Positions 30,012-48,182 of a DNA stretch of 48,182 bases are shown here, one piece after another. Source of the stretch: Candidatus Uhrbacteria bacterium RIFCSPLOWO2_01_FULL_47_25. GTDB lineage: Bacteria; Patescibacteriota; Patescibacteriia; GWA2-46-9. The notes under the pieces are model-generated. The model saw only the letters and a list, made by a program, of their open reading frames with translations. It did not search any database and was not told the DNA's origin. The stretch's first letter is position 1; each line of letters begins with the position of its first letter. Where the stretch lies: positions 1 to 48,182 of the forward strand of contig MGEK01000006.1 of NCBI GenBank assembly GCA_001791325.1, written 5' to 3'. The position numbers and the translations under genes were made by a program.

Positions 30012-30027
30012 TATCAACATCAGTTAG

Positions 30028-30059
30028 ATATTCGCTCATTCGCACGAATGAGCGAATGT
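30028..30059. promoter_or_regulatory. Palindromic 4x8-bp box downstream of ArsR-1
   Basis: ATATTCGC TCATTCGC ACGAATGA GCGAATGT; 13-bp perfect IR. Confidence 0.65.
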
Positions 30060-30112
30060 GGGAGATGAAGAATGTTGGTAGGAGGCGTGATGGTGTGACG
30101 AGGCGACGGAAG

Positions 30113-30523: not shown

Positions 30524-30554
30524 CTTTTAAATTTTGCATTTTGACTTTACATTT

Positions 30555-31133: not shown

Positions 31134-31584
31134 AAAAATTACCGTGAGTTCAAAAAGCCGCAGTCTCAAGCTGGCGGTAGTTGTTGCTGATTTTAATGAA
31201 GAAATAACAAAAGGACTTTTAAAAGGAGCGTTAAAAGCCATTCACGATAGCGGACTTGAGAGGAAGCAAGTCAGAGTTTATCACGTGGCCGGATCATTTG
31301 AAGTGGCCGAGCTCGCCATGCGTTTAGCCAAAACCAAGCGCCTTGAAGCTATTGTTTGTTTGGGGGCGATTATTAAGGGCGAAACAACGCACGATCAGCA
31401 TCTCGCGAGCGCTGTTACTCATGGCCTAATGCAAATCGGCTTAGATACGGGCGTGGCAATCGGTCTTGGGGTTATCACAGCGAATAATATGGTCCAAGCT
31501 CGCGCCCGCTGTGGCGCGGACAAATATAATCGCGGTTATGCCGCCGTCGTGGCCGCTATTTTATTGGCCACACAAAAAATTTAA
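31117..31584 (+). CDS. ribH: 6,7-dimethyl-8-ribityllumazine synthase
   Basis: FNEEIT, V.GSFE, CLGAIIKGETTH. Confidence 0.93.
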   Translation: MQRAVKKITVSSKSRSLKLAVVVADFNEEITKGLLKGALKAIHDSGLERKQVRVYHVAGSFEVAELAMRLAKTKRLEAIVCLGAIIKGETTHDQHLASAVTHGLMQIGLDTGVAIGLGVITANNMVQARARCGADKYNRGYAAVVAAILLATQKI

Positions 31585-31595
31585 CCGCTACGGCT

Positions 31596-33467
31596 ATGTC
31601 ACCAGCAGAGGAAGTCAAGTCACGGCTGGATATCATTGACGTTGTCAGCGAATACTTTCCTTTAAAGCCAGCCGGTGCCAACTGGCGGGCGCGCTGCCCT
31701 TTTCACGAGGAGCGCACGCCGTCGTTTATGGTAAGTAAGTCTAAACAGATTTGGCATTGTTTTGGTTGTGGCGAGGGAGGCGATATATTTTCATTTGTCA
31801 TGAAGCAGGAGGGGCTGGAGTTTCCAGATGCCCTGCGACTGTTGGCGGATAAAGCCGGAGTGCGCTTGAAGGCCGAAGATCCTACTATTCGCAGTGAACG
31901 GCAGAGACTCATGGCTTTGCTTGAAGCGGCTGTAGTGTTTTGGTCAGAAGTTTTGTGGCGGGAAGTATCTGCTAAATCTGCCATGAGCTATCTGGTAGAG
32001 GAAAGAAAACTAAAACCGGAAACAATTCGCGCCTGGCGGTTGGGCTATGCTTCAGATTCGTGGGAGGCGCTCATAAATCATTTGGTTAAGCTCGGATATA
32101 AAGAAGAAGAAATGATCAAAAGCGGCGTGGCTATACGCAAAATGGAAACGCGCGGGCGGGGGGCATATGATCGTTTTCGCAATCGTATCATTTTTCCTAT
32201 TGCCAATACCTCCGGTCAGATAATTGGAATAAGCGGTCGGACCTTGTCTAGTAGCGAGACCGAGGCCAAATATGTCAACACACCGGAAACACTCCTTTAT
32301 TATAAAGGGCAAGTTCTTTACGGTTTAGATAAAGCCAAAACTTCAGTCAAACAGCAAAATTTAGCCATTATCGTTGAAGGCAATATGGACGCCATTGCTT
32401 CACACGAAACTGGTGTGGCTAATGTCGTGGCGTCTTCGGGCACTGCCCTGACTCAAGATCAGGTGCGTTTACTTAAGCGCTTTACCGATAATTTAGCCTT
32501 TGCTTTTGACGCGGACGCGGCCGGCGAGTCAGCCACTCTGCGCGGTTTAGTGATGGCTCTTTCCGACGGCTGTCAAGTTTCGCTTATCAGCTTGCCGCTT
32601 CGCCCTGACGGCAAACGTTTTAAAGATCCGGATGAGTGCATTCGCGCCGATTCTAAACTCTGGCTTGAAGCCATTGCTAAAGCCGAACCAATGTTGGAGC
32701 ATTATTTCAGCCGAGCCGTCTCGGAGTACGATCTTACGAAATTGCCGGACAAACAGAAGGTAACCAAATTACTTTTGTCATTGATTGGCCGATTGCCAGA
32801 TCCGGTGGCCTTAAATCATTATTTGAAAAAATTATCTAATTTGGTTGATGTGCCGGAGAGATATTTAAGAGAAGTAATGCCACGGCAATTTAACAGTTCT
32901 GACTCGCAGACAGGTTCGCCAGTTAGCGTTAGTTCGGGTATTGTTACGCCGCTTCGTGCGCGCGACAGCCGTTCAGTTCAGAGTGAGCGGCTATTGGCGG
33001 CGCTTCTCGCCGCGCCCAAGCAAACGGGCTATGTGGTCGGCGTCATTGTTCCGGAAATGCTGGCGTCCGAATATGCCCCTCTTTATCGGGAAATGGTGGT
33101 TTTCTATACAGCCAAAACAAAAAATGGTAAGATTGATTGGCAGGGGCAAGACTTTACTGAACACCTGCGAAATTATTCAGAAAGCGAGTCGTTCTTAGCA
33201 CAGCTGGCGGTACTGTTGCTCTTGGCAGACAAAGAATTTGCTGAGTTTGATTCACTGGGGATTGAGCGCGAAATACTTGTCACTATTAATCGTTTAAAAA
33301 CGTCGTATTTGAAGTCAGTTTTGCAAAGACTAGAAAACGATATTCGGACTATTGAGCAGTCTCCATCGCAAGATAAAGTACGATTGGCTGCCTTGTTTGA
33401 GGAATTCAAGACGGTCAGCGTAGAATTGGCCAAAATTCATCATCAGAAAAATAGCAATAGTAAATAA
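31596..33467 (+). CDS. dnaG: DNA primase
   Basis: [53 protein letters not shown]. Confidence 0.97.
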
Positions 33468-33469
33468 TT

Positions 33470-34708
33470 ATGAAGCGTAAAAAGAAAAAAATTGGTATTC
33501 GCTCAAAAAATGGACGTCGGAAAAAGTTATTGGCGCGCAAATCTGCCGCAGTTAAAGCCCGCAAAAAATCGGGCTTAACTCGTCGTGCCATAAAATCATT
33601 ATTGCCGCCATCGCCGCACCCTGACGAAGCGGCCGTAGAACGCTTGCTAGCCAAGGCCCGCTCCCGCGCTTTTGTGACCGAAACCGAGATAACTTATGTT
33701 TTTCCTGAAGTAGAAGAATATCTGGAAGAGTATGAAAAATTTTTAGACACCTTGGAAGATATGGGTGTTGGCATTGTGGCCATGGGAGCAAACATTCTTG
33801 ATCTTCATGGTCAAGTAAAAAAGGAAGAAATGAACATAAAGATTGGTGCGCCAGTAGACAAACGCCGTCTTGATCTCTCTGATATTTCCGCCGATTCTAT
33901 TCAAATGTATTTGCGAGAGATCGGCAAAGTGCCGCTTTTAACCGCCGAAGAGGAGGTTGTTTATGCCAAGCGTAGAGAGAAGGGTGATGAAGAAGCCAAG
34001 AAAAAACTTATTGAAGCAAACCTGCGTTTGGTTGTGTCTATCGCGAAGAAATTTACAGGGAAAAGGCTTTCTCTTCTGGACTTAATTCAAGAGGGTAATA
34101 TAGGTCTTTTCAGAGCTGTGGAAAAATTTGAGTACCGTAAGGGTTATAAGTTTTCCACTTACGCCACATGGTGGATTAGGCAGGCGATCACGCGGGCCTT
34201 GGCCGATCAGTCACGCACCATTCGCATCCCCGTGCACATGGTGGAAACCATTAACAAGTTTCAGCAGATTGAACGTCAATTGATACAAGACCTCGGCCGT
34301 GAGCCATTACCCGAAGAGATTGCCGCGGAAATGGGGGAGCCCATTGAAAAAATCCGCCATATCATTAAAATATCTCAAGATACGATTTCACTGGAAACCT
34401 CCGTTGGTGAAGATGATGAGGATTCAACTTTGGAAGATTTCATTGAAGACGTTAAAAACATTACGCCTGACCGCGCGGCCGCTCTGCAATTACTTAAAGA
34501 TTACGTGCGCGATGTTATTAAGGAATTGACTCCTAGAGAGCAGAAGATTTTGGAAATGCGCTTTGGTTTGATAGATGGCGTGGCACATACCCTGGAGGAA
34601 GTGGGCAATGAGTTTGGCGTAACGCGCGAGCGCATTCGCCAAATTGAAGCGAAAGCCCTGGAAAAAATTCAGAAACATGAGGGAATTAAGCGGCTGAAAG
34701 ACTACTAA
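33470..34708 (+). CDS. rpoD: Primary sigma-70 factor
   Basis: [45 protein letters not shown]; follows dnaG. Confidence 0.96.
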
Positions 34709-34744
34709 ATTGAGCTGTAAGCTGTAAGTCATAAATTTTAAGTT

Positions 34745-35770
34745 ATGACCAAACAAGATTTTCTCAAAACACCGGTTGAGCATATTGATTTTAAAAAAAT
34801 TGATCCAACGTATTTAGTGGAAGCGATGTCCAAGATGTCGTTTTCGTCGCGCGATTTGGCGCGGGCGGCCGATATTTACGTAAGGATGCTTAGCGAAAAA
34901 GAGAGCACTGTTATTTTAACGCTGGCCGGCTCCACCAGCGCCGCCGGTTGCATGCAGGTTTATGTTGACCTCGTGAAAAACAAGATGGTAGATGTCATCG
35001 TGGCTACAGGTGCCAGCATCGTGGATATGGATTTTTTTGAGGCTCTAGGATTTAAGCACTATATTGGCACGCCTTGGGTTGACGATAACCAATTGCGTGA
35101 GCTTCATATTGATCGCATCTATGACACGTTTATTGATGAAGATGAATTGAAAGAATGCGATATTATTATTGCTAAAATTGCCGACAGCATTGAACCAAAA
35201 CCGTATTCTTCGCGAGAATTTATTCAATTGATGGGCAAGTATCTGTCCGAGGTGGGCGCCAAAAAAAAAGATTCGCTGGTACAAGTGGCGCATGAAGCAG
35301 GAGTGCCGATTTTCTGTCCGGCTTTTTCTGATTCCAGCGCCGGCTTTGGGTTGGTGTATCATCAGTATCATCATCCGGATAAACACGTCTCCATTGATTC
35401 GGTAAAAGATTTTTTGGAATTGACTAAAATCAAGATGGCTGCGGGAACGACTGGCCTTTTAATGATTGGCGGCGGCGTGCCTAAGAATTTTGCTCAAGAC
35501 ACGGTGGTGGCCGCGGAAGTTTTGGACAAAGAAGTGCCAATGCATAAGTACGCCGTGCAGATTACTGTGGCTGATGTGCGCGACGGCGCTTGCTCCAGCT
35601 CAACCTTAAAAGAGGCGAGCTCATGGGGTAAGGTGGAAACGACTTTTGAGCAGATGGTTTATGCTGAAGCAACACTTGTGTTGCCACTCATCGCCGCTCA
35701 CGCGTACAGGAGTGGGGTTTGGCATAATCGCAAACAGCATCGTTGGGCAGATTATCTCAATAAGCAATAA
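34745..35770 (+). CDS. Deoxyhypusine synthase-like protein (probable polyamine/homospermidine synthase)
   Basis: IDRIYD, FCPAFSDSSAG, GGGVPKNF, DGACSSSTLKEASSWGK. Confidence 0.9.
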   Translation: MTKQDFLKTPVEHIDFKKIDPTYLVEAMSKMSFSSRDLARAADIYVRMLSEKESTVILTLAGSTSAAGCMQVYVDLVKNKMVDVIVATGASIVDMDFFEALGFKHYIGTPWVDDNQLRELHIDRIYDTFIDEDELKECDIIIAKIADSIEPKPYSSREFIQLMGKYLSEVGAKKKDSLVQVAHEAGVPIFCPAFSDSSAGFGLVYHQYHHPDKHVSIDSVKDFLELTKIKMAAGTTGLLMIGGGVPKNFAQDTVVAAEVLDKEVPMHKYAVQITVADVRDGACSSSTLKEASSWGKVETTFEQMVYAEATLVLPLIAAHAYRSGVWHNRKQHRWADYLNKQ

Positions 35771-35868
35771 TTAAAAGTTGCGCAAAACTTATTCTCGTGC
35801 TACACTGCTGCATATTTTGTTCTTTGATTTATATTCCGGGGTAGCTCAGTGGTAGAGCAGGTGACTGT

Positions 35869-36494
35869 GAACGTATCCGCGGTATACTTTTTATATGCCG
35901 AAACGGAGAACATATGCTGACCGTCGAGAGTACATAAAGGCGGCCGTGGCCAAGCGACGCAAGAAGATTAAAGTCATGGCTGTTGAGTACCTTGGTGGAG
36001 CGTGTCATATTTGTGGTTATAAACGCGCAATAGTAGCTCTTGATTTTCACCACTTGGATAAACATCATAAAGATTTTGCTGTTTCTCAAGATGGATTAAC
36101 AAGAGCTTGGAGTCGTGTGAGTTCAGAGTTAGATAAATGCGTTTTATTGTGCGCGAATTGTCACAGAGAAGTACATGCTGGTGTAATCGCAGCCCCGCGT
36201 AGGAATGCGCGGAGAAAAACTGGGTGAATTCGGGGAAGCCCAGCCCCACTTTTTGATAAGATGCCACCAGTAGATAAATAATTGTGTATTTATTTGCTGA
36301 CGTTAGTACTAGTCATTATCGGTTTTGTCAGAAAGTGGGGCTGGGTAATCCCGAGCCAATACCTGACGGGTAAAAGTGTCAGGAAAGGTGTAGAGACTAG
36401 CGGGTGAGTCCCAACGATAATCCCGCCACGAGCGCCCAGCGCCTAGAACAGGCGATGAGATAGTCCGTCCCTATTGGTAACAGTAGGATAAACG
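35869..36494 (+). ncRNA. Group I intron (626 nt) inserted between anticodon positions 35 and 36
   Basis: Exon ends in U and intron ends in G. IGS GCGGT (35879) pairs with ACTGT. P GAATTCGGGGAA (36226), Q AATCCCGAGC (36347), R GTAGAGACTAG (36390), S GAGATAGTCC (36457); P3 CTGGGTG/CGCCCAG; P7 GACTA/TAGTC. Confidence 0.92.
35895..36227 (+). CDS. Intron-encoded HNH homing endonuclease
   Basis: CHICGY...ALDFHH...KCVLLCANCHREVH. Confidence 0.85.
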   Translation: MPKRRTYADRREYIKAAVAKRRKKIKVMAVEYLGGACHICGYKRAIVALDFHHLDKHHKDFAVSQDGLTRAWSRVSSELDKCVLLCANCHREVHAGVIAAPRRNARRKTG

Positions 36495-36537
36495 TAATCA
36501 CTTGGTCGTGGGTTCGAGTCCCACCCCCGGAGCCATC

Positions 36538-36570
36538 AAAAAACTTCTGCCATCTCGGCAGAAGTTTTTT
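36538..36570 (+). terminator. Intrinsic terminator after tRNA-Asn
   Basis: AAAAACTTCTGCC-ATCTC-GGCAGAAGTTTTTT. Confidence 0.8.
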
Positions 36571-37050
36571 GATATTTCAGAGGTGCGGGTTGGAACTCGA
36601 ACGGGCAGAAGTGAGCGGCGATGAGTAGCGGAAGCTGCGACGAGCCAAGTGAATGTCGATAAGTCTGAGCGAGCGCAAGACTTAGCGCTGCCCAAGGCAG
36701 AGTGCGGAGTCGGTCTGCTGCCGATAAAGCACGTCGGAAGTCCCACCCCCCGAGCATTGATTGAGATCGAGTCATGAGTTTATCGAAGGGCTCGATTTCT
36801 GTTTTACTTGTCCTGAGTCTTATCGAAGGATTCACTGGGTTTTTTTGCGGTTTCCTGCCCGCCGAAGCCCTCACCTTGTCGCGAAGCCCTCGGCGAAGCG
36901 CAGGTCGGCGCAGGCGGGGAACCGAGAGTGGAGAGAGTCTCTTTTTTCTTCTCCCACGAGCCGGTAGTTGTATTATATAACTCCTTTATGTTAATATATG
37001 AACTGGAGATGACCTTTAAAGTATTTTCGGGTAACAATATTGCTAAATAT

Positions 37051-37449
37051 ATGAGTAGAAAATCTGGTTTTAAACTAACAAAAGAACACAAAAGAAGCAT
37101 AAGCGCAGGGATGAAGCGTGCTTGGGAAAAATCTGTTGGAGGGACAGGGGCAGCCTCTCTTGAGAAGTACGGATTTCTTATAAAAGACAGGAAGCAGATA
37201 AGGAAAGAGGTAATAAAAATGCTTGGTGGAAAATGTAAAAGATGCAACTTTTCTGATATTCGCGCCCTTCAAATAGATCACGTAAATGGGAATGGGAGCA
37301 AGGAAGTTAAGTCGTTTTATGGTGGAAACAAAACAATGCAGAGATATATCTTCACGGGACGACTTCCGAAAGAAAATTATCAGATTTTGTGTGCTAATTG
37401 TAACTGGATTAAGAGACACGAGAACAAAGAGTTTACGCAACCCAAGTAA
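37051..37449 (+). CDS. Free-standing HNH endonuclease
   Basis: CKRC...ALQIDHVNG...YQILCANCNWIK; basic N-terminus; ATG at 37051. Confidence 0.75.
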   Translation: MSRKSGFKLTKEHKRSISAGMKRAWEKSVGGTGAASLEKYGFLIKDRKQIRKEVIKMLGGKCKRCNFSDIRALQIDHVNGNGSKEVKSFYGGNKTMQRYIFTGRLPKENYQILCANCNWIKRHENKEFTQPK

Positions 37450-37468
37450 GGTTACTTCCAGTATAAAT

Positions 37469-38173
37469 ATGGACCCCGTTAGATATTTGCGGGGTAAAAC
37501 AGGTAAAAAACAAAAAATTATGATGATATCTAATGGGGTGGATAAAAAACCTACAAAGGGCGAATACTTGGATATCTTGTTAAGATCTCCCAAAACCGTC
37601 TTTTCAACCAAAGATGTTGCTTTATTGTGGGTTGAAGAAAGAGAAAATACGGTCAGTGCTAGATTAAATAAATATGCTAAGGCCGGAAAGTTGATTAGAG
37701 TTCGTCGCGGCTTGTATGCCAAAGACAAAAATTACGACAAGTTTGAGTTGGCGACAAGAATCTATACTCCCTCATATATCAGCTTTGAGACCGTTTTGAC
37801 CCGGGCTGGGATTAACTTTCAGTATTACAGCAACATCTTTGTTGCGTCTTATGTTTCGAGAGAAGTAGAAATAGACGGCCAAAAATTTACATTTGTGAGA
37901 ATGAAAAGTTATGTTTTGTCGAATACCGACGGCATTGACCACAAAGCCGGCCATGCCATTGCTACAAAAGAGCGGGCCTTTTTAGACAGAATCTATGTAA
38001 GCAAGGATTATCACTTTGATAATTTGGATTCTTTGGATTGGGATGCGATTTTTCGGATTTTACCCATTTATAACAACAAAAGGATGGCAAAGAGAGTTAA
38101 CGCATATTTTAAACATTATTCCGCAGAAGGCGGATCCGCCTCTGGCGGAAAAAATTCCAATTCAAACATATGA
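37469..38173 (+). CDS. abiEi: Type IV toxin-antitoxin antitoxin AbiEi
   Basis: wHTH GKLIRVRRGLY, PSYISFETVL, IATKERAFLD; ATGA overlap with the toxin gene. Confidence 0.85.
   Translation: MDPVRYLRGKTGKKQKIMMISNGVDKKPTKGEYLDILLRSPKTVFSTKDVALLWVEERENTVSARLNKYAKAGKLIRVRRGLYAKDKNYDKFELATRIYTPSYISFETVLTRAGINFQYYSNIFVASYVSREVEIDGQKFTFVRMKSYVLSNTDGIDHKAGHAIATKERAFLDRIYVSKDYHFDNLDSLDWDAIFRILPIYNNKRMAKRVNAYFKHYSAEGGSASGGKNSNSNI
37470..37542. mobile_element. CCCCGTTAGATAT...ATATCTAATGGGG element with TGGA duplication, in frame in abiEi
   Basis: TGGA-[65 bp]-TGGA, net 69 bp; removing it restores MDKKP. Confidence 0.75.
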
Positions 38174-38865
38174 CCTTAGATTATTCGATACATAAAAACA
38201 TACAGCTTCAGATTCTCAAAGAAATATATACCGACACGACGATTGCTCCGCACCTCGGTTTTAAGGGTGGGACAGCAGCCCTTATGTTTTATGACTTGAA
38301 CCGATTTTCGGTTGACCTTGATTTTGATCTTTTGGATGAAAGCAAAGAGAAAAAGGTATTTGAGAAAATTTTAGAGATTGCCAAAGGATACGGGGATATA
38401 CGAGAATCGCGGATTAAGCGCTACAACTTAATAATAATTCTTTCCTACGACATCAAGGCTCAAAATGTAAAAATCGAAATCAATCGCAGAGAGTTTGGTT
38501 CTCGATACGAGCTCAAAACCCTGCTTGGCATTTCCATGCTTGTAATGATCCGCGAAGATATGTTTGCCAACAAGCTTATGGCAATGTATGAGCGGGTCGG
38601 CAAAACGAGCCGGGATGTTTTTGACGTATATTTCTTTGCGAAAAATAACTGGCCGATTAACAAAGAGATCGTAGAAAAAAGAGCCGGCATGCCTTATAGG
38701 AAAACGGTAGGAAAATGCATTGAGCTTTTAGAGAAGATGAACAATCGGAACATCTTAGATGGTCTTGGCGATTTCTTGACCGAAAGCCAAAAAGATTGGG
38801 CCCGGGCAAAACTCCGTACGGAAACAATTTTTCTATTAAACGCTCGCCTTGAAAGCGAAATATGA
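38170..38865 (+). CDS. abiEii: Type IV toxin AbiEii nucleotidyltransferase
   Basis: FKGGTA, RFSVDLDF, KIEI, ANKL.A, RDVFD. Confidence 0.9.
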   Translation: MTLDYSIHKNIQLQILKEIYTDTTIAPHLGFKGGTAALMFYDLNRFSVDLDFDLLDESKEKKVFEKILEIAKGYGDIRESRIKRYNLIIILSYDIKAQNVKIEINRREFGSRYELKTLLGISMLVMIREDMFANKLMAMYERVGKTSRDVFDVYFFAKNNWPINKEIVEKRAGMPYRKTVGKCIELLEKMNNRNILDGLGDFLTESQKDWARAKLRTETIFLLNARLESEI

Positions 38866-38935
38866 AAATGGATATTCGCGGAACGCTCGCCCGGATTGAT
38901 TTTTAATTATTACTTGTAGTGAATTTAATTAAACT

Positions 38936-39340
38936 ATGATTATTGAACTCAAAAAATTCGGCGCAATTCTGATATCCCGTCCCGCCGGCCGGGAGGCGTT
39001 CAACGCTATTCGGCCAGAGCTAAAGCGTGGCGAGGCGGTACAGGTGGATTTTCGCGGAGTGCTTGCGGTAACTCCGTCATGGGTGGATGAATTCCTTTTG
39101 CTTTTAATTGATTATGTCGGCGACAATGTGGAACTTTGGCCGACTGACAACACCTCGGCACTCGCTACGTTTCGGGTACTTGCCGAAGCGAAACAAGAAC
39201 CAGTTGCCAGCCTCGCGCGCCGATATTTAGAAAGTGAAAAATTCACCCCATTAGATACGAAGTTATCTAACGGGGTAAATGTGCGATTCGTCAATAACGA
39301 AGCCAATCGGGAAGAAATTAAGAAAGAGAGAAAAACATGA
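38936..39340 (+). CDS. STAS-like (DUF4325-type) protein
   Basis: L.SR..GREAF, VDFRGV..VTPSWVDEF; paralog at 45482. Confidence 0.75.
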   Translation: MIIELKKFGAILISRPAGREAFNAIRPELKRGEAVQVDFRGVLAVTPSWVDEFLLLLIDYVGDNVELWPTDNTSALATFRVLAEAKQEPVASLARRYLESEKFTPLDTKLSNGVNVRFVNNEANREEIKKERKT

Positions 39341-40053
39341 AAATTAAGGACCTGCCCAAAATTGATAGACCACAAAACGAACATCCAAGTGCTGGTCATA
39401 GAAAAAGATTACGCGAAAGGTTTTTGCGCGCTGGGCTGGATGGGTTTGGGGATTATGAAATTGTTGAATTACTTTTAACCTTGGGTACCCCGATGAGAGA
39501 TTGCAAACAAATGGCTAAAGAAGCAATTAAGGAGTTTGGTGGATTACGCGGTGTGCTCGACGCTTCATATGAAGAATTGCAAAAAATAAAAGGACTCGGT
39601 CCTCATAATATTTTTGGCCTGAAATTTTTCCAAGCACTCTCAAAGCGTTATTCTAAAGAGAAACTCCCCAGGAAAATTACATTTGATTCTCCGCAAGCCG
39701 TCATATCTTTTCTTCAAGAAAAAATAGGTCAAGAGCCAAAAGAACATTTCCTGATTCTTTCGTTGAATACGCGCAATAATTTAATCAGGCACGACGAAAT
39801 TTCCATTGGGACTCTCAACGCCAGCATTGTTCACCCGCGCGAAGTTTTCAAAACTGCAATCCAAGCTCTCGCCGCTAATATAATAGTGGCCCATAATCAC
39901 CCTTCAGGTGATTCAGAACCTTCTAGGGAAGATATAGAAATTACCGTGGCGTTGAAAGAAGCTGGTAAAATTATAGGCATCGAGGTTCTAGACCATATAA
40001 TTGTAGCAAGGGAAAAAACTTTCAGCTTCAAAAATAATGACCTTATAGTATGA
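39337..40053 (+). CDS. radC: RadC / JAB-domain protein
   Basis: GHRKRLRERF, HhH, VHPREVF, HNHPSGD..PS.ED, LDHII. Confidence 0.93.
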   Translation: MKIKDLPKIDRPQNEHPSAGHRKRLRERFLRAGLDGFGDYEIVELLLTLGTPMRDCKQMAKEAIKEFGGLRGVLDASYEELQKIKGLGPHNIFGLKFFQALSKRYSKEKLPRKITFDSPQAVISFLQEKIGQEPKEHFLILSLNTRNNLIRHDEISIGTLNASIVHPREVFKTAIQALAANIIVAHNHPSGDSEPSREDIEITVALKEAGKIIGIEVLDHIIVAREKTFSFKNNDLIV

Positions 40054-40403
40054 AAGATCAAAGAATAAAGAAACTTATCGCAAAGATAATTAAATTCAGA
40101 GATGCGAGAGACTGGAAGCAGTTTCACAACCCTAAAGATGTCGCGTTATCTCTTGTATTGGAATCGGCAGAAGTGCTTGAACATTTCCAATGGAAAACCA
40201 AAGAGGAAATAGAAGAATACGTTAAAACAGCAAAGAACGAGATAGGAGAAGAACTTGCAGATGTATTATACTGGGTTTTGTTGTTAAGCAATGATCTAGA
40301 AATTGATGTTCTTGATGCCCTTGATTCTAAAATGAAGAAAAATGAACAAAAATATCCAGTTGATAGGGCTAAGGGAAGGCACACAAAGTATACAGATTTA
40401 TGA
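40050..40403 (+). CDS. MazG-like nucleotide pyrophosphohydrolase
   Basis: FRDARDWKQFHNPK, E.AE.LE.FQW, EELADV, N..KYP. Confidence 0.9.
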   Translation: MKDQRIKKLIAKIIKFRDARDWKQFHNPKDVALSLVLESAEVLEHFQWKTKEEIEEYVKTAKNEIGEELADVLYWVLLLSNDLEIDVLDALDSKMKKNEQKYPVDRAKGRHTKYTDL

Positions 40404-41506
40404 TTGACTTCACCCCGTCATTAATCGCAAAAGGATTTTTCAGGTTTACTGGACCGCCCGAGAACTGGTTGACGGCGATTAAGTTCATGACTTGGGGGTT
40501 AGAAGAAAAGTTACATCCTCGATGGGAAAAAATCCAACCAGGCGACATATTTTTTATACATAGCACAGGCCCGCAAACTTCTTTATTCGAAAACGCTAGG
40601 TCAGGGATTATAGGTTTGGGGGTGGTGGGACCAAATTTCTCAATTAAAAATAATTACCTCTGGATTAGAGAGTTTGAAGAAAAGCGGAATATTTGGCCTC
40701 TTCTGGTCCCTTTTTCAGAAATTTATTTATTTAGCGAACTGCCACCGCGCGAAAGTTGGGTAGTGCCTAGCTCTACAAATATCCAACAAATAACTAACTT
40801 AGTTGATAGGTTATTAAAAAACTACATACCCTTAGCGAGTCTTCAAGGTTTTCCGCGGATGGGAAGTTTTTCTCCTGTTTCTAAAACAGTATCAGAACAA
40901 ATCCTCTATGATAAAAGGCCTCTCTACATTTATACAAGTGAAATAGCGTTAAGTACTCTGAAGGCAAAACCAACAAGATTAGAAAAAATAAAAAGCGCTT
41001 CGGAAACACTGCGATACGCAGAAACATTGAGGGTATTTGACACAATCAGAAAACGAATGGTCCGAGAAACGCCTGGTCAATATACTCGCGATAATGAATT
41101 GCTGGCGAGGGCCGAAGCTGCTCATAGCACTATTTTAGAAGAGCTTATTGAGATATTTAGGAACAAAGGATATGAAACACGCTCAAATAAGCATGTAGAC
41201 CTATTTGCATATAATAAAGAAAGGTCATTCTTGTTCGAAGTAAAAAGTACTGAAAATAAAAATTTCATAAGTCAGGCCAGAAAAGGTTTAATTCAACTTT
41301 TCGAATATGATTATTTCGAAATACGGAAATTCACGTCTGAAAATAAATTTGATTTTAAAGATAAGTATAAAATTTTAGTACCCTCACAAATTCCTAAAGA
41401 CACTAATTATGTGGGGTTCATTAACGATTTAAAAACTGGCGTAGCAGTAGTAAAAGATAGGTCTATTAAACCTGTGGGTGCAGATTTTGGTTTTTCAAAA
41501 ATATAA
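40400..41506 (+). CDS. EVE/PUA-like domain fused to a PD-(D/E)XK nuclease (putative modification-dependent endonuclease)
   Basis: N-terminal ENW......WG.......I.PGD.F......GIIG.G.V; C-terminal VDL......LFEVKS and QLFEY. Confidence 0.65.
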   Translation: MIDFTPSLIAKGFFRFTGPPENWLTAIKFMTWGLEEKLHPRWEKIQPGDIFFIHSTGPQTSLFENARSGIIGLGVVGPNFSIKNNYLWIREFEEKRNIWPLLVPFSEIYLFSELPPRESWVVPSSTNIQQITNLVDRLLKNYIPLASLQGFPRMGSFSPVSKTVSEQILYDKRPLYIYTSEIALSTLKAKPTRLEKIKSASETLRYAETLRVFDTIRKRMVRETPGQYTRDNELLARAEAAHSTILEELIEIFRNKGYETRSNKHVDLFAYNKERSFLFEVKSTENKNFISQARKGLIQLFEYDYFEIRKFTSENKFDFKDKYKILVPSQIPKDTNYVGFINDLKTGVAVVKDRSIKPVGADFGFSKI

Positions 41507-41594
41507 TAAAATATAATTCTGTTTATAAACTCTACGCCCTCCCTCCAGAGGCGGGCAGGCACCCCGGAGGAGATTAAGATCGTTGAACAAGATT

Positions 41595-43373
41595 ATGGCA
41601 CGAAAAACAATTGAAAATTTAACAAAAAGTAGCCTTTCAAAAGTTTTTAGACGCCTTAAAAAAGATACAAAGGGCTTTTCTACATTATTGGTGCGAGATC
41701 CTATTGATTTTGTAGATTTTGAATCAAATTTGGATGAGGCGCTTGATTCTTTGTTATCTGAAATTAACAAAAATCATTATCACCCTCAAAAACCGTGCCT
41801 ACACCCTTCGCCAAAAAGTAAAGGTATCAATCGCCCAACCGTTGTATTTGATGTAAAAGATGCGCTGGTTTATCGTTTCTGCATTGAACAAATTGAAGAT
41901 GTGCTTTTCAAAAAAGCTAGACAGAAAAACATCCGTGGTGGAGTAAAAATTACCCCGAATCGCGCGGTCAGTGGCGGTGATTTCTACGAAAAATGGTTTA
42001 AAGATTGGGCAGATCACCTAGATGGTATTAAAGATAGCCTCACAACGAAAAGATACTTAGTTAATACAGATATCGCCTCTTACTTTGAAAACATAAATAT
42101 TTTAGTGCTTAAGGACTTGGTGCGAAGTGATGTGAAAGAGAAAAAAGGCGTTATGAATTTACTTTTTTATTTTTTGGAGAATACAAGATTTCGAATCGAT
42201 TATGAAGTTAACACTTTTACAGGACTCCTTCAGGAAGATATTGACTGTTCTCGTGTATTGGCATACTACTTTTTGCATCTTCATGATGGTGTAATGCGGG
42301 CTTTTTGCAAAGAGCATGACGCCGAGTTTTATCGCTTTGTAGACGATATGTCTATTGCAGTAAACTCAGAGGTTATTGGCAAAAAGGCATTAAGATGTAT
42401 CACCGAATCCCTGAGGAGGTTAAATTTAGTATCCAGTATAGAAAAAACCACAATCTTCAATCAAAAAATAGCCAAACAGCAACTTTTCTTTGCTGAAAAT
42501 ACAAAACTATCGGAATTTGAAAAAAATGTCTTGCTTAAGTTGGGAAAAGGTCAAAAAGTTACAAGAGAAGTTCAGGCGATACAGAAATATTACCAAAAAC
42601 TTTTAAGAGATGAGAAAGATGAATACAAAAATTGGATAAAAATACTCAAAAGATTTTATTCACTTGCGGCATACACGAAATCTAACTTTCTATTTTCGGA
42701 TATAACAAAACATCTCATTGATTACCCCATCCTTTTTACAGGAAGCAATACGAAATTAAGTAAATATCTTCTTAGGACCCGGGGCGAGAAAAAATTCAAT
42801 AGTGTGATGAGTGGGATTATTAAATATCTCTATTCAAAGGAAAATCTTTACTCGGCTACCGAGACAAGTTTGCTCGAGCTTTTATTAACTATTGATCCGC
42901 AGAACTATTCTCCTAGTGTAAAAATTAAAATTAAAACCCTAGCTGACGATATTCTATTTAAAAAAAATGGTTATAACCCCCTTTCAGATTATGCTCGAGC
43001 ATTGGCTTGTTTATTTTTCTATCGCTATAGACGCAGCGATATTGATCGGATCGCAAATCACTATTTACGATCAAACGAAGAAAACCGTCTAATAAGAAAA
43101 TATTTGATTTCTGTTTCGTTAATAACGCAAAACAACGATTTGCGAACCAAGGTGTTAAATAAAGCGAAGAAAGAACAAGATCTTTCAATTAACCGTCTGA
43201 TTAATCTCGTTGATAACATCAATGAGTATAAAAAGTTGCCAACAATCAAACACTATCTTAAAGAAAAAGAAGTTTACTATACCTATAAAAATCCATCAGT
43301 TCAGATAATAGAAAAATATAGGGCGGTACGCGCAGAAATACTTAACGAAATTATCAGTATTTACTCAACCTAA
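41595..43373 (+). CDS. Reverse transcriptase of UG/Abi (defence-associated) type with a long helical C-terminal domain
   Basis: PKSKG..RP, TDIASYFENI, GLLQ....SRVLA, YRFVDD, L.RLNL....EKT; about 290-aa Leu/Lys-rich helical tail; AT-rich. Confidence 0.85.
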   Translation: MARKTIENLTKSSLSKVFRRLKKDTKGFSTLLVRDPIDFVDFESNLDEALDSLLSEINKNHYHPQKPCLHPSPKSKGINRPTVVFDVKDALVYRFCIEQIEDVLFKKARQKNIRGGVKITPNRAVSGGDFYEKWFKDWADHLDGIKDSLTTKRYLVNTDIASYFENINILVLKDLVRSDVKEKKGVMNLLFYFLENTRFRIDYEVNTFTGLLQEDIDCSRVLAYYFLHLHDGVMRAFCKEHDAEFYRFVDDMSIAVNSEVIGKKALRCITESLRRLNLVSSIEKTTIFNQKIAKQQLFFAENTKLSEFEKNVLLKLGKGQKVTREVQAIQKYYQKLLRDEKDEYKNWIKILKRFYSLAAYTKSNFLFSDITKHLIDYPILFTGSNTKLSKYLLRTRGEKKFNSVMSGIIKYLYSKENLYSATETSLLELLLTIDPQNYSPSVKIKIKTLADDILFKKNGYNPLSDYARALACLFFYRYRRSDIDRIANHYLRSNEENRLIRKYLISVSLITQNNDLRTKVLNKAKKEQDLSINRLINLVDNINEYKKLPTIKHYLKEKEVYYTYKNPSVQIIEKYRAVRAEILNEIISIYST

Positions 43374-43396
43374 GAAAAAAATACGCAAATAAAAAG

Positions 43397-43626
43397 ATGA
43401 ATCCAGAAAAATATTATTACAACCGATTTCGTGATCAGTTTACGGAGTTTGTTAGAAAATCAAAAGCCCTTTCTCGCCTCTCCAAATCCAAAAACAAATT
43501 GTCCAAAAATTGTCGGTAGTTCAGGAATATAAAACGCGACTCATTGAGCAACGAGCGAAATTAAAAGAACTATTTGACAGTATGCTACATCAATCTTTCA
43601 GTAATAAAACATCCTTACAAACTTGA
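43397..43626 (+). pseudogene. Restriction-modification remnant (HsdS-like C-terminal helix)
   Basis: The frame from 43456 reads KIKSPFSPLQIQKQIVQKL...QRAKLKELFDSMLHQSF, preceded by a stop. A short ORF start lies at 43397 in another frame. Confidence 0.55.
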
Positions 43627-43646
43627 GAATATGAGAATGTTTTTGT

Positions 43647-44378
43647 ATGCAGCCGAAATACGATTTGGATAAAATTAAATTTGCGACGGATGGGCCGACT
43701 TTTGAGAAGGCGGTTGATTTGTATGAGAAAGGAAAGGTAACACAATTTAAGGAAGAACTTAATGGATTTTTCGCGATTGTTTTAGGAACGAAACCATACA
43801 AGGTTTATGTAGATAACCGGCATTATGATCAAGGTGACTGCGAGTGTTATCTCGGCCAGAATGATACGCTTTGCAAGCATATGGTGGCGGTTGCGATTCG
43901 GGCCGTAACCGGTGGTAAACCGCTTTCAGACGAAAATAAGCGGCTTGTAACTCAAGTTACTTGTAGCGGTAAATTGGGGGAGTTAAGCAAGAATGAATTA
44001 TCTGTGGTGAAAAAATCCATCACTGGCGCCATGAAATATATAAAACCGTATAATGGCCCCTCTCGCATTTGGTTTTCATATCAAAGTTCACTGTCGGAAG
44101 GGTGTAATCGGCTGGCAAAAATTGTCTCGGAGTTACCGGTGAGCGAACAGACGGCGAAGTTACTAGTTGATATGCTTCTTCGGCTTGATAACAAACTCTG
44201 CCGGAGCGGTATTGATGATTCTGACGGCACCGTTGGCGGTTTTATTGAGGAAACCGTACAAATGCTCAAAGAATACTCAAAACTTGATCCTTTTTGCGCG
44301 AAAGCGTTCAATGAACTGAAAGACAAAGAAACTTGTTTCGGCTGGGAAGAGCCTCTTTTGGATATTGGTCATCATTAG
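43647..44378 (+). CDS. SWIM zinc-finger protein
   Basis: CECYLGQNDTLCKH, V.GTKPY.V, DDSDG..GG. Confidence 0.85.
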   Translation: MQPKYDLDKIKFATDGPTFEKAVDLYEKGKVTQFKEELNGFFAIVLGTKPYKVYVDNRHYDQGDCECYLGQNDTLCKHMVAVAIRAVTGGKPLSDENKRLVTQVTCSGKLGELSKNELSVVKKSITGAMKYIKPYNGPSRIWFSYQSSLSEGCNRLAKIVSELPVSEQTAKLLVDMLLRLDNKLCRSGIDDSDGTVGGFIEETVQMLKEYSKLDPFCAKAFNELKDKETCFGWEEPLLDIGHH

Positions 44379-44743
44379 AACATCCTTATAAACTTGAGAA
44401 TGTTGGTATGATGTAGTACAATGTGAATATGGGCAAAATTAAAACTGCAAAACAAGGAGTTTGATCCTGATTAATTTGACGAAGATCCTCCTTCGTCCTG
44501 AATTTACTGAAGGACTACGGACGGGCGCAGCGAGCAACCCGCATGTGCCGACCTGCGCTTCGCCGATGGCTTCGGTCTGGCTTCGGCGGCCGGGAAAAAT
44601 ACCTTATTGCAGTTAAAGAAATTCAAACGGCCTTATATGCGGGCTAATCCTTAATTTTCGCCTATTTTTGCATAGTTTGTTAACTTTGTGCATAGATTTT
44701 ACTGCATATTGCATAGATTTTAAAGATGTAATAGGATACGGAA

Positions 44744-45463
44744 ATGGATGAAAGATTGCTTAAAATTAGTGAAGCCGCCGAAATTCTAGGTGTTTCTATA
44801 GATACGCTTCGTCGTTGGGATGAAAGTGGGAAGTTAACTGCGATTAAAAAGGAGGGCGGTACGCATCGTTATTATTGGGAAAAAGATATAGAGATTTTTG
44901 CAAGCGATCTTTTTAAGTTTGCTTCTGATTGGATCAAAGAGGGAGCCGAATTTCCCGGCACTTTTTACTGCCCTACGAGCGCTGTGTTTCAGGCAAGGCT
45001 GGTAAAAATGGAGCGTATGATTATGGAAAAGCCGGGCTTCGAAAAATTATACTCTTTGATTGTTCTGGTAGCCGGGGAAATCGGAGATAATTCATTTGCT
45101 CATAACTTGGGAAAATGGCCGGATACTCCGGGGATCTTCTTTGGATACGACATTCAAAAGGGTACCATTGTTCTTGCCGATCGGGGTTTGGGTATTTTAG
45201 AAACGTTGCGCCGCGTTCGCCCGGATTTATCTACGCATGTGAAAGCAGTTGAGGTGGCATTTACGGAATTTATATCCGGCCGCGCGCCGGAAAAGCGTGG
45301 TAATGGTCTTAAATTAGTTCGAGAAGTGGTTCTTACCCAGCCGATTGATCTATTTTTCGTGAGTGGTGATGCAGAGGTATATTTAAAGGGCGCCAATAAA
45401 TCCTTTCAGGTTACTCGTGGCCCGAATGTAATACGCGGTTGTATGGCAAAAATTAATTTTTAA
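44744..45463 (+). CDS. MerR-like HTH fused to a HATPase_c (GHKL) domain
   Basis: ISEAAEILGVSIDTLRRWD..G...GTHRYY; E..DN...H, ADRGLGI, RGNGL. Confidence 0.85.
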   Translation: MDERLLKISEAAEILGVSIDTLRRWDESGKLTAIKKEGGTHRYYWEKDIEIFASDLFKFASDWIKEGAEFPGTFYCPTSAVFQARLVKMERMIMEKPGFEKLYSLIVLVAGEIGDNSFAHNLGKWPDTPGIFFGYDIQKGTIVLADRGLGILETLRRVRPDLSTHVKAVEVAFTEFISGRAPEKRGNGLKLVREVVLTQPIDLFFVSGDAEVYLKGANKSFQVTRGPNVIRGCMAKINF

Positions 45464-45481
45464 CGTAATCTAATAAAATAT

Positions 45482-45808
45482 ATGAAATTAAAATTAGAAA
45501 AATTCGGCACTACTCTCATGTCCCGTGAATTAGGCAGCGAGGCATTCAAAGCGTTCCAGCCCACCTTGCTTGAACTTTACCCGTCCGATGAGCTGGAAAT
45601 TGATTTTTCCGGCGTATTAACATTGTCATCCTCATGGGCGGACGAGTTTTTAAGTCCTCTACTTGAAAAATTGGCTGAACGGCTGGTGTTATTGCCCTCT
45701 GACAATCTCTCGGTGCAAGCAACCTTAAAGATTCTGCAAGAGGCGAATAAACGCCCGTTCAAATTTAGATTCACCCCGTTAGATATAGCAAACGATCTAA
45801 CGGGGTAA
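45482..45808 (+). CDS. STAS-like (DUF4325-type) protein
   Basis: SRELGSEAF, IDFSGVLTLSSSWADEF. Confidence 0.8.
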   Translation: MKLKLEKFGTTLMSRELGSEAFKAFQPTLLELYPSDELEIDFSGVLTLSSSWADEFLSPLLEKLAERLVLLPSDNLSVQATLKILQEANKRPFKFRFTPLDIANDLTG

Positions 45809-45895
45809 ACACCCGTTAGATATTTATAATATGTATTACATCTATATATTGCAAAGCAAAAAAATAAAACCAACTAAAATAACATCCTTATAAAC

Positions 45896-45924
45896 TTGAG
45901 AATGTTGGTATGATGTAGTATAAT
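45896..45924 (+). promoter_or_regulatory. Sigma-70 promoter of ArsR-2, with the -35 inside the repeat box
   Basis: TTGAGA-17 bp-TATAAT, ATG 6 bp downstream (leaderless-like). Confidence 0.65.
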
Positions 45925-45930
45925 GTGAAT

Positions 45931-46218
45931 ATGGGCAAAATTAAAACAGCAAAACAAATGGAGCGGCACTTCAAGGGGGTAGCAAATCACTACCGTATTG
46001 AGATACTGCTTCTTATAGCTGAGCACGATGGTATAACGCTGGAAGATATTGTTGAGGGGCTTGGAGCAAACGAGAAGACCATTGGTGAACACACCCGACG
46101 ACTGTACCAAGCCGGATTAATCAATAAAAGATACCGCGGCAAATTTGTGGAACACGCCTTGTCGCCATACGGAAAAACATTTGTCCATTTCCTAAAATCA
46201 TTTCAACAAACACAATAA
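45931..46218 (+). CDS. ArsR-family winged-helix regulator
   Basis: FKGVANHYRIEIL...TIGEHTRRLYQAGLI.K...G. Confidence 0.85.
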   Translation: MGKIKTAKQMERHFKGVANHYRIEILLLIAEHDGITLEDIVEGLGANEKTIGEHTRRLYQAGLINKRYRGKFVEHALSPYGKTFVHFLKSFQQTQ

Positions 46219-46245
46219 CATCCTTACATACTTGAGAATGTAAGG

Positions 46246-46566
46246 ATGTTGCGGATGTGGAGAGTGGGCATCGCGGCGTTTTTTGTTCAGCTATTCTTAA
46301 ACGCTATCTGGTCAATTATTTTCTTTGGCCTGCATGGTTCGACGTGGCTCACCATAAATAGTCCCGGCTGGGCCATCGTTAATATCGTGGCGCTCTGGCT
46401 CGCGATTGTCTGGACAATGATTGTCTTTTACAAAATTTCTCCTCCTTCGTCCTCGTGGTGGACTACGGAAGGACACGGAAAACTCGCGGCTTATCTGCTA
46501 GTACCGTACATACTTTGGGTAAGCTTCGCTTCGTATCTGAATTATTCGATCTGGGTTCTTAACTGA
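46246..46566 (+). pseudogene. TspO/MBR protein, 5'-truncated, with two palindromic insertions
   Basis: QLFLNAIWSIIFFG...AAYLLVPYILWVSFASYLN; N-terminal helices are missing. Confidence 0.7.
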
Positions 46567-46825
46567 ACTGACAAGCTGCCAATAATTCGCAACTATAGAT
46601 ACCCATCAGTATTTGTCACCTCAATAAGGTTAACGGTATATGTCGTTGACATTTTATGAGATTAGATTATACTGCAATGTTCCTAATACAATATCAGGAG
46701 GGTATTGGGAATCTCTGCTGACGCATAGGGCGTTCACGCTAGAGTAAGCACCGAGCATAGTTACATCGTAGGCTCGGAAGCGCACCTTACAACATGGGGC
46801 ATAACGTCCCCACAGGAGGTCAGAG

Positions 46826-47935
46826 ATGGTTGACCAGCGAAAGATTTTGGAATGGCACCGCAAAGGGGTGAAGACAATCGTCACGCACATGGATCCGCAC
46901 CCTGACGAGATCGTAGCGATTCTCCTTGCTCGTTCCAAGCCGGGATTGCAGTATTTTCCGGGCGCGGACACGGCGCCGATTGAAACGTGGTCCAAGTCAG
47001 ATGAGCGCCTTCAGCGACCGCCGGACGCATTGGCACAGGAGGGCTGCCTCCTTATTGGCATTGGCGGCAGTCCGTTTGATGAGCACGCTACCGAGCACGG
47101 AGAGGGAAAGCCCGGCTGTGCTTCAACCTTGATGGCAAAGCTTCTCGGCTTTGACAAGGTTGACCAGTTGCGAAAGTTCCTCAAGCACATCGAGCGTAAC
47201 GACAATGGTCAGTGGGGTCAGTTTGATCTTGCGACCGCTGTCATGCAGATGTACGACGAGGGGCGGCCGACCGATTCCGCCCTGACTGCCCGACACCAAC
47301 AGCGGTGCGTGGGAATCGCCTTGCACCTCTTCAGCGCCTTGGTGAACCGTCACCTGCGGTTCTTGAGTGAAGGCGCTGCGGCTTTTGCGGCGGCCCAGAA
47401 GTTCAAGGTGGAGCGCCGCGGTGACCGCCGTGTTATCAACATCGCCGTCGGCGTCAGCGACGCCGAGAGCTTCCCGCGCTATGCCCGCTCCGAGCGAGGG
47501 AACAGTGCAGACATCGTCATCGTCAAGAGTCCGTCGACCGGGTGTATCTCCATCCTGACGGTCGATCAGAAATTCGACCTGACGCCGCTTGCCCGGGCGC
47601 TCCGGATGCGGGAGCTCTATCTCCGCAACCAGCACCGCGGCACGGGGTGGGAAGAGCTCTCGTGTGTTGGTGTTCATCCGGCTGTTCCCGAGTGGTATCT
47701 TCACGACAGGCGCGGTCTTGTTCTCAACAAGAGTCGAGTTCGCCCCGACGCCCCGCCGACGCAGATTCCCTTGGAGGACGTGGTTGACATGACCGAGTGG
47801 GTGGTCGGCGGGTGGCTACCGGAGTTTCGGGATCAGTCCTGCGTCCGAGCCCAATGCTGTTTCTGGGAGAAGTGCTCGGTCTACGCCCTTGGCCTGCCTC
47901 GGTGCAGGGATTATCGCCGCGAGCTTGCTGCTTAG
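46826..47935 (+). CDS. DHH/MYG1-like phosphoesterase with a Cys-rich C-terminus
   Basis: IVTH..PH.DE, IGIGG..FDEH, D..G; SD AGGAGG; visibly GC-rich. Confidence 0.6.
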   Translation: MVDQRKILEWHRKGVKTIVTHMDPHPDEIVAILLARSKPGLQYFPGADTAPIETWSKSDERLQRPPDALAQEGCLLIGIGGSPFDEHATEHGEGKPGCASTLMAKLLGFDKVDQLRKFLKHIERNDNGQWGQFDLATAVMQMYDEGRPTDSALTARHQQRCVGIALHLFSALVNRHLRFLSEGAAAFAAAQKFKVERRGDRRVINIAVGVSDAESFPRYARSERGNSADIVIVKSPSTGCISILTVDQKFDLTPLARALRMRELYLRNQHRGTGWEELSCVGVHPAVPEWYLHDRRGLVLNKSRVRPDAPPTQIPLEDVVDMTEWVVGGWLPEFRDQSCVRAQCCFWEKCSVYALGLPRCRDYRRELAA

Positions 47936-47981
47936 GTGGAGGACTCTGCCTGCCTGGGACAGCGTGACAAATGACGCTACA

Positions 47982-48033
47982 AAAGGGCGAGCTGTTGCTG
48001 GTATATCCGCGCACAGCTCGCCCTTGACTTTTT
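47982..48033 (+). terminator. Intrinsic terminator
   Basis: AAGGGCGAGCTGT...ACAGCTCGCCCTT followed by a T run. Confidence 0.6.
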
Positions 48034-48182
48034 TATATATTGTGTTAGTGTATAATCATTGACAACGTGCTGTCCTGGCAGGAGCTCGGACAGCCCAGAC
48101 GAGAGGAGGGATCAAATGATCCACAATCGTGGCCGCCCCGTAACAACGGGCCATCAGCCGTTCGCCATTATTGTCGACGTCG

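Follow-up and report, generated by a model that had tools for sequence, protein, structure and literature searches.

Palindromic boxes in a Patescibacteria accessory island as probable operators of an ArsR/SmtB-like regulator and candidate points of genome rearrangement

The accessory island on contig MGEK01000006.1 of Candidatus Uhrbacteria bacterium RIFCSPLOWO2_01_FULL_47_25 (Patescibacteriota; assembly GCA_001791325.1) raises the question of why one palindromic sequence, hereafter the box, recurs there at gene boundaries. We analyzed a stretch of 48,182 nt of this contig (positions 1 to 48,182, forward strand), hereafter the window. A preliminary description of the window had reported four copies of the box, had taken them for operators that coincide with breakpoints, and had compared the whole to an integron-like array of gene-sized cassettes with a recombinase. 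The 23-nt sequence AACATCCTTAYAWACTTGAGAAT has exact matches on the + strand at 43608-43630, 44379-44401, 45881-45903, and 46217-46239 (boxes 1 to 4). No further copy with up to three mismatches is present in the window, and 100 dinucleotide shuffles of the window gave 0 matches. Checked against the sequence and the open reading frames (ORFs), the boxes lie at gene boundaries at the positions reported. From sequence comparison, we consider it probable that the boxes are repressor operators and that their present layout was derived by recombination.

In full, the box is a palindrome of ~34 bp with a 15-2-15 layout, and each arm carries two ACATyC-like hexamers. The window has TG at the 2-bp centre; elsewhere TA, GG, or GC is found there. 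Reading the centres CTTGAG, CTGGAG, CTGCAG, and CTTAAG as restriction sites was dropped, since the variation is confined to the palindrome's 2-bp spacer. Box 4 (46217..46250, + strand) is a near-perfect palindrome that overlaps the regulator's TAA stop codon. It was described as a perfect 12-bp inverted repeat; the palindrome stands, and the perfect arms reach 13 bp. They form a hairpin of -11.5 kcal/mol (z = -7.75 vs shuffles), and by a second count 16-nt arms are 94% complementary around 2 nt. The right arms of boxes 1-3 are degenerate, and these boxes fold like shuffled sequence (-1.7 kcal/mol, z from -0.11 to 0.47). With folding seen in box 4 alone, a hairpin or terminator role for the boxes was rejected. 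No Rfam match was found at the boxes, the sole Rfam match being a group I intron. The genome-wide motif scan that had been proposed was run with nhmmer and a profile of 48 copies on the genome of this window (G000; 1.2 Mb in 40 contigs, of which C6 is the window contig). It gave 14 box sites at E<=1e-3, and the boxes thus extend beyond the island.

A small regulator gene, termed ArsR-2 in the preliminary description, lies between boxes 3 and 4 (45931..46218, + strand). Its product matches Pfam HTH_5 (1.7e-6) and MarR (1.4e-6), and its nearest relatives of solved structure, from the PDB, are ArsR (6j05, 2.5e-4), CadC (1e-3), and SmtB (8e-3), so that both Pfam and PDB point to an ArsR-type winged helix-turn-helix domain. 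The metal or metalloid site of ArsR/SmtB proteins is formed by Cys of alpha3 or His/Asp of alpha5. The regulator has no Cys in its 97-aa sequence, and its residues ITLEDI align with LCVCDI of CadC. Three paralogs of the regulator are encoded in the genome, on contigs C6, C2, and C3. The C6 and C3 genes are each located between two boxes of matching subtype. For the C2 gene, the box at the stop is full and that at the promoter half-degenerate, and another full box lies ~210 nt upstream.

Co-occurrence of box and regulator was determined for 61 genomes of the class, with regulator homologs counted at E<=1e-8. Boxes were present in 14 of the 61 genomes (12 of 59 genera), and a regulator homolog was present in 11, all of which also carry boxes. 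Three genomes had boxes without a regulator (G005, G037, and G048), and 47 had neither. A reversed control pattern of the box gave 0 in every one of the 61 genomes. Thirteen regulator units could be aligned, and all 13 had one order: box, TATAAT-like -10, ATG about 6 nt on, regulator gene, and a box touching or overlapping the stop. Both boxes of each aligned unit have the same centre type. The recognition-helix residue is G in the seven units with inner arm AAACT (7/7) and S in those with ATTCT (6/6); because the units fall into two clades, this pattern does not represent 13 independent events. A scan of one genome per species identified 208 regulator relatives, and the best 80 were used for locus counts. 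By title, all 80 loci are from Patescibacteria-type metagenome-assembled genomes (MAGs), a few of which bear evidently automatic other labels. At least one box profile hit was found at 63 of the 80 loci, typically at -48..-10 and abutting the stop. Palindromes of at least 12/15 were found in 40 of 80 upstream windows and 43 of 79 downstream windows, compared with 15 of 400 random windows.

The relation of the box to the promoter is clearest at box 3 (45881..45914, + strand). The -35 TTGAGA (45896-45901) is followed by 17 nt, TATAAT (45919-45924), 6 nt, and ATG 45931. Box 3 spans the -35 and the 17-nt spacer, and thus overlaps the regulator's own promoter. GTG 45925, given as the start in the ORF list, is unlikely because of the leaderless-type geometry at ATG 45931, and the regulator probably starts at this ATG and has 95 aa. 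The ATG 6 nt past the -10 in the 13 aligned units suggests leaderless transcripts. A -10 was counted where at least five of six positions matched at 16-18 nt spacing from the box TTGAGA. By this rule, 47 of 125 distinct TTGAGA-type boxes have a -10 (3 of 125 in a shifted control). Flanks were long enough to sort 118 of the 125 by place, and a -10 accompanied 37 of 45 boxes upstream of a regulator, 2 of 30 behind a regulator, and 5 of 43 others. Many stop-side boxes are fully symmetric (AAACT-GG-AGTTT), so the upstream form seems to reconcile the palindrome with a -35. Co-occurrence, the flanking of the regulator gene, and promoter overlap together make the boxes look like operators, as had been suggested; the argument is a comparative one. 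Box 3 would be an autoregulatory promoter-operator, at which we infer repression by occlusion of the -35 and spacer.

SmtB, CzrA, CadC, and ArsR are autorepressors with 12-2-12 inverted-repeat operators. The present system has the winged helix and the operator layout of the ArsR/SmtB family: a winged-helix protein of small size, whose own -35 and spacer are overlain by an imperfect palindrome around a 2-bp centre. Unlike in that family, the arms are 15 bp with two hexamers each, a second site is constantly found at the regulator's stop codon, and the regulator lacks cysteine and seems to have no recognisable metal site. Further boxes are scattered in the genome, some of them in frame in genes; the geometry is of the leaderless type; and the boxes appear as rearrangement points. 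In our proposal, a small and probably metal-independent repressor, ArsR/SmtB-like in type, has a 15-2-15 operator, and each box is a copy of it. The regulator gene, the operator over its promoter, and the second operator at its stop would form a conserved Patescibacteria cassette, behind which tspO is often found.

The tspO gene behind box 4 provides the clearest evidence of a breakpoint. The 3' part of the gene (46246..46566, + strand; frame open from the box on, HPYILENVRMLRMWRVG..) matches model positions 70-145 of the 145 in Pfam TspO_MBR and no others. Full-length genes are present in eight relatives, so that the 5' truncation reported earlier is real. At locus L129, the order is box, regulator, box, and then a full TspO of 189 aa, in which an in-frame box (KQHPYILENVRMLRVWKIG) encodes the helix 2-3 loop (KQHPYILENVRMLRVWKIGIAAFFVQLFLNAIWSIIFFGL). 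The full TspO at L095 also contains an internal box. In the window, HPYILENVRMLRMWRVGIAAFFVQLFLNAIWSIIFFGL stands directly past the regulator's TAA. DNA homology between the window and L129 covers the regulator unit at 45877-46245 and tspO from its internal box at 46217-46554. An N-terminal TspO piece (the first ~70 codons) was found nowhere in G000. By comparison with L129, the window has the L129-type arrangement minus the stretch from the stop-side box to the tspO-internal box. Box 4 doubles as the stop-side site of the regulator and as the site internal to tspO. Such a double identity requires a joint inside the box itself, and box 4 would represent a fusion of the two sites. A regulator followed by tspO was found at 10 of the 80 loci and in G032 and G054; since this adjacency recurs, tspO is the likeliest conserved target. 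No synteny with C6 was found around the TspO genes of G002 and G003 when ORFs were compared. Locus L133, from a MAG labelled Doudnabacteria, has a stop-side box and then a tspO fragment only (residues 22-55, 2322-2423). This fragment is followed by a MerR-ATPase/DUF4325 module that is the one of the window (its two genes 89% and 86% identical). L133 appears to be a second, independent decay of the regulator-tspO pair beside this module.

Other borders also map to boxes. At locus L103, the order is regulator, box, SWIM, with a SWIM gene 77% identical to that of the window. Homology begins at 43608, the left edge of box 1, and the window has an HsdS tail there instead of the regulator. Box 1 (43608..43641, + strand) would be the site that elsewhere separates the regulator from SWIM. 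Box 2 (44379-44412) begins 1 nt past the SWIM stop and is part of a feature (44379..44455, + strand) that also contains a promoter, TTGAGA-17-TACAAT, and the first regulator codons. This feature is copy A of a 77-nt direct repeat (44379-44455 and 45881-45957, 97% identical), and the 'duplicated ArsR start' of the preliminary description is therefore real. Likeness of the box 2 repeat to the regulator units of L133, L103, and L129 ends at 44455, and box 2 with its 77 nt is best read as the stump of a second regulator cassette. When 36000-48182 was compared by blastn with five relatives (G001, G002, G004, G054, and G032), only 45876-46250 was conserved. This stretch is the regulator unit, bounded by the outer edges of its two boxes, and none of the five carries the island, since blastn found the unit alone.

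Metagenomes were consulted for further joints. Four groundwater or soil runs were compared as Logan contigs, with depth summed over contigs at least 90% alike. In runs X1 and X8, summed depth was 12-16 in the flanks, 336-362 in the box 1 bin, 47-67 in SWIM, 71-335 in the MerR-ATPase bins, 170-226 in the DUF4325 bin, 480-489 in the box 3 bin, 1566-2077 in the regulator with box 4, and 14-20 in TspO. Loose ends, many and heterogeneous, were found at 46217 and at 46250/51; in some of the alternative joints, a site of box 2 or box 4 type stands 15-20 nt ahead of the SWIM start. The pieces that lie between boxes 1 and 4 exist in many other contexts in these mixed communities, and the depths describe the communities, not this organism's copy number or events; only stretches with contig cover were taken as evidence. 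The junction leading into 46600-48182 is not specific to the assembly, because X1 and X8 Logan contigs span 46224-48182 and 46224-48080 with no mismatch. The refuting outcome named in the preliminary description, gene order that stays the same among relatives with breakpoints away from the boxes, was not seen: order varies among genomes, and breakpoints map to boxes. A breakpoint role of the boxes is supported, on the sequence evidence, by one clear case, the TspO truncation at a box that is intragenic in L129 and L095, and by several consistent ones (the SWIM order of L103, the homology edges of the unit, and the metagenome joints).

The same borders could arise if the boxes were operators only and met breakpoints by coincidence, with no box-tied recombination. 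In compact genomes with very short intergenic spaces, most conserved non-coding elements sit at gene ends, and the homology borders of the unit could simply mark the end of selected sequence. However, the TspO remnant starts in a box that is internal to the intact L129 and L095 genes, not at a gene border, and box 4 with its double identity needs a join within the box. We therefore regard coincidence as very unlikely.

Are the boxes then the sites of an integron-like system, in which a site-specific recombinase excises and inserts gene-sized segments? As in integron arrays, imperfect palindromes in one orientation are located at gene borders, and genomes differ in the genes found between them, with breakpoints at the boxes. 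A 15-2-15 site with an asymmetric 2-bp centre recalls those of small serine recombinases, and in two cases (G004:C4 and L171, below) a small element sits in the exact centre of a box, so that the centre can open. One X11 Logan contig joins 46251 back to 45874. This back-joint, seen in a single metagenome contig, would fit the 378-bp unit as a circle or in tandem and may also stem from another organism. The genome has two tyrosine recombinases only (PF00589; C39:28016-28492 and C27:22116-22685), with none on contig C6, and no serine recombinase. No IntI-like gene, which in an integron lies with attI and Pc beside the array, was found among the scanned window ORFs at 39337-47935. None of 46 box-adjacent proteins (0/46) belongs to a recombinase or transposase family. 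attC sites are longer imperfect palindromes (57-141 bp), recognised in folded single-stranded form; the boxes differ from them in being 34 bp long and, in boxes 1-3, in not folding (z near 0). Spacers between box and SWIM start are 5, 15, 20, and 23 nt, different in each context, whereas a cassette cut in the site should keep its spacer. Box 3 has its own promoter, which gives at least one 'cassette' a promoter of its own, unlike in integrons, and the borders of the MerR-ATPase/DUF4325 module are not at boxes. Homology of this module to L133 2830-3958 (83% DNA identity) runs over window 44656-45786, and neither border coincides with a box. The proposal of an integron-like array with a recombinase is not supported, and we judge such a system highly improbable here.

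Several observations fit less well with boxes that are operators rearranged by recombination. Boxes 1 and 4 have no usable -10 at promoter spacing and so are not simple promoter-operators. The asymmetric box centre points opposite to the regulator gene in G002 and L107. Genes adjacent to boxes share no common function: of the 46 neighbouring proteins scanned, 24 have a Pfam family, and these are diverse, including NYN, YceI, peptidase S49, GT1, RadC, DNA glycosylase, MFS, HAD, SDR, MgsA, REase_MTES_1575/DUF559, and HI0933-like. L129 is only ~75% identical, and the parental arms are too alike, to locate the crossover in box 4. Finally, three of 15 examined G000 sites are in frame in conserved genes (tsaD, FemAB-like, and MnmA-like). 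A plain regulon does not predict such copies, which point to some means of spreading.

These in-frame copies are the main reason to consider the palindrome as a small mobile or self-propagating element, comparable to repetitive extragenic palindromic (REP) sequences, MITEs (miniature inverted-repeat transposable elements), or Rickettsia palindromic elements. The regulator gene would then be its master copy or partner, and an operator role would be secondary or co-opted, so that this explanation overlaps with the one we prefer. Compared with G002, G003, and G004, the tsaD box is an insertion of 13 codons and the FemAB-like box one of 18 codons, each exactly at the box. Further in-frame copies are present in the MurC gene of G043, in a gene of the MBL fold in G057, and in TspO of L095 and L129; the G000 ortholog of the G043 MurC, at 31% identity, is too distant to show an insertion. 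Every in-frame box is read in the sole stop-free frame (H-P/S-x-I-L-E/K-N-V-R-M). Copies within a genome are more alike than copies between genomes, the four of L137 being near-identical. The spread over 14 of 61 genomes and 12 of 59 genera is patchy, and the unit is ~100-fold over-represented in metagenome contigs. The stop of an upstream non-regulator ORF lies within -2..+4 of the box start in 14 of 43 cases. The expected traces of transposition are nevertheless lacking. G000 has 0 matches to Y1/HUH transposases (PF01797) and no serine recombinase, and its two tyrosine recombinases are far from C6. No target-site duplication is visible at the tsaD or FemAB-like insertions. A metagenome scan for an empty tsaD site gave none, only the same organism (L170) and L171, whose tsaD (75% identical) bears an other-subtype box at the same place, so that the tsaD copy is old rather than recently moved. 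Copies number only ~14 per genome, and boxes 1-3 form no hairpin. A mobile element with a secondary operator role is accordingly possible, and in our view rather unlikely.

A second, small element bears on the box centre. In L171 the centre of the tsaD box is split by a small CCTCCTTC..GGACGGGC element, and in the G004:C4 unit (L052) the box centre is split by a relative of it; both are related to a small CCTCCTTCG..GGACTACGGA(C/A)GG element of the window. From the presence of such elements at the exact centre in both cases, it follows that the centre can be opened. In G000 the CCTCCTTCG..GGACTACGGA(C/A)GG element occurs just twice, each time in the window. One (CCTCCTTCG..GGACTACGGACGG, 44486..44530, + strand) is beside the breakpoint of the truncated regulator gene, and the other (CCTCCTTCG..GGACTACGGA, 46438..46480, + strand) is in frame within the TspO remnant, where it reads PSSSWWTTEGHG. 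Together, the in-frame copies indicate that boxes can apparently arise by insertion and then persist.

The pair of box and regulator resembles described repeat systems in part. Like the REPIN-RAYT systems (PMC8049555), the unit is a single gene between two copies of a genome-dispersed palindrome. The differences are that the gene between the palindromes codes for a winged-helix protein where REPIN-RAYT systems have a Y1/HUH transposase, that the copies number ~14 instead of hundreds, and that some are intragenic. Rickettsia palindromic elements and prokaryotic MITEs (PMC1779305 and PMC10969869) share the in-frame palindromes in conserved genes that are not destroyed by them. The boxes differ from them in being much shorter (34-40 bp), in having no terminal duplication that we could see, and in being tied to a cognate regulator gene and promoter. 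Reused or 'mobile' promoters (PMC3575422) are likewise closely similar promoter-type sequences before unrelated genes and across genomes. In the present case, the reused piece is mainly operator and -35, and most non-regulator copies are without a -10. We found no published description of the box-regulator system in the full-text literature, a search that did not cover subscription journals.

In the explanation we prefer, operators that are dispersed in the genome would serve as repeats between which recombination occurs. Recombination of this kind would have taken away the 5' part of tspO and changed the order of genes nearby, and the route we infer is most simply ordinary homology-dependent or short-homology recombination. 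A bolder version would make the palindrome and the winged-helix protein a self-propagating pair, with a REPIN-RAYT-like layout but no known transposase. The protein would mark or synapse the sites and leave the rest to host recombination. A cassette-like shuffling system would result that carries a common promoter-operator and accessory genes from one ultra-small bacterium to another and could even settle in frame in essential genes. This version seems to us decidedly doubtful.

The remaining features of the island are all on the + strand. An HsdS-like 3' remnant, for type I restriction specificity, occupies 43455..43630 and enters box 1. Its translation ends ..SPFSPLQIQKQIVQKLSVVQEYKTRLIEQRAKLKELFDSMLHQSFSNKTSLQT* (frame reads ..LFDSMLHQSFSNKTSLQT), the stop being a TGA in the box 1 centre, and box 1 overlaps its last codons. 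The HsdS label is putative, being based on a motif; G000 has no second copy of the remnant. The gene for a SWIM zinc-finger protein of 243 aa (43647..44378; Pfam SWIM) has its ATG 17 nt after the box 1 copy. The interval between box 2 and the MerR-ATPase module consists of the regulator stump and GC-rich debris. At 44456-44480, just past the stump, the sequence reads GGAGTTTGATCCTG, and ~25 nt on, GATCCTCCTTC. We take the former to resemble the 5' end and the latter the 3' end of 16S rRNA, which may be chance. The module itself (44656..45808) comprises a MerR-HTH/ATPase-like gene (44744-45463) and a DUF4325 STAS-like gene (45482-45808), both recognised by Pfam, with its own TGCATAG repeats upstream.

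Further observations concern the surroundings. An ORF of 596 aa (41583-43373) has a weak RVT_1 match (4.1e-5, below the cut-off), and a gene pair at 37500-38866 looks by eye like AbiEi/AbiEii; together these suggest a defence-type island. The group I intron (Rfam, 69.8 bits) lies at 36133-36487 (+) and is directly followed by a tRNA-like 3' end, GGTTCGAGTCCCACCCCCGGAGCCA, at ~36495-36535, for which ARAGORN made no call. A partial repeat of this end is found at ~36735-36750, and the accessory island lies downstream. Intron and tRNA-like end may belong to an intron-bearing tRNA or transfer-messenger RNA-like gene that serves for integration. No tRNA was called by ARAGORN in 30000-48182. A hairpin, CACCCCGTTAGAT..ATCTAACGGGGTAAA, is located at the 3' end of each of the two DUF4325 (STAS-like) genes (39244-39280 and 45772-45809) and further upstream (37470-37500). 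Another hairpin repeat, of the GGCGGATCCGCC type (38119-38153), has many matches in G001, G002, G004, G032, and G054 and is another dispersed small repeat of the lineage. In 46600-48182, G+C climbs from ~0.4 to 0.61, and this region holds a 369-aa ORF without a Pfam family.

To our knowledge, for want of pure cultures, gene regulation and genome plasticity in Patescibacteria are almost unstudied. The box and its regulator are one of few regulator-operator pairs of the group that sequence reveals and that lend themselves to in vitro tests. The pair comprises a conserved predicted repressor of 95 aa, found in at least 208 species-level genomes, and a sharply defined 34-bp site, and has tspO as its probable target. 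Since these sites mark gene truncations and reorderings and also occur in frame in housekeeping genes, a palindrome with a regulatory role may at the same time be a substrate on which genomes rearrange. If true, this would offer cassette-like modularity by a simple route, with no integron needed.

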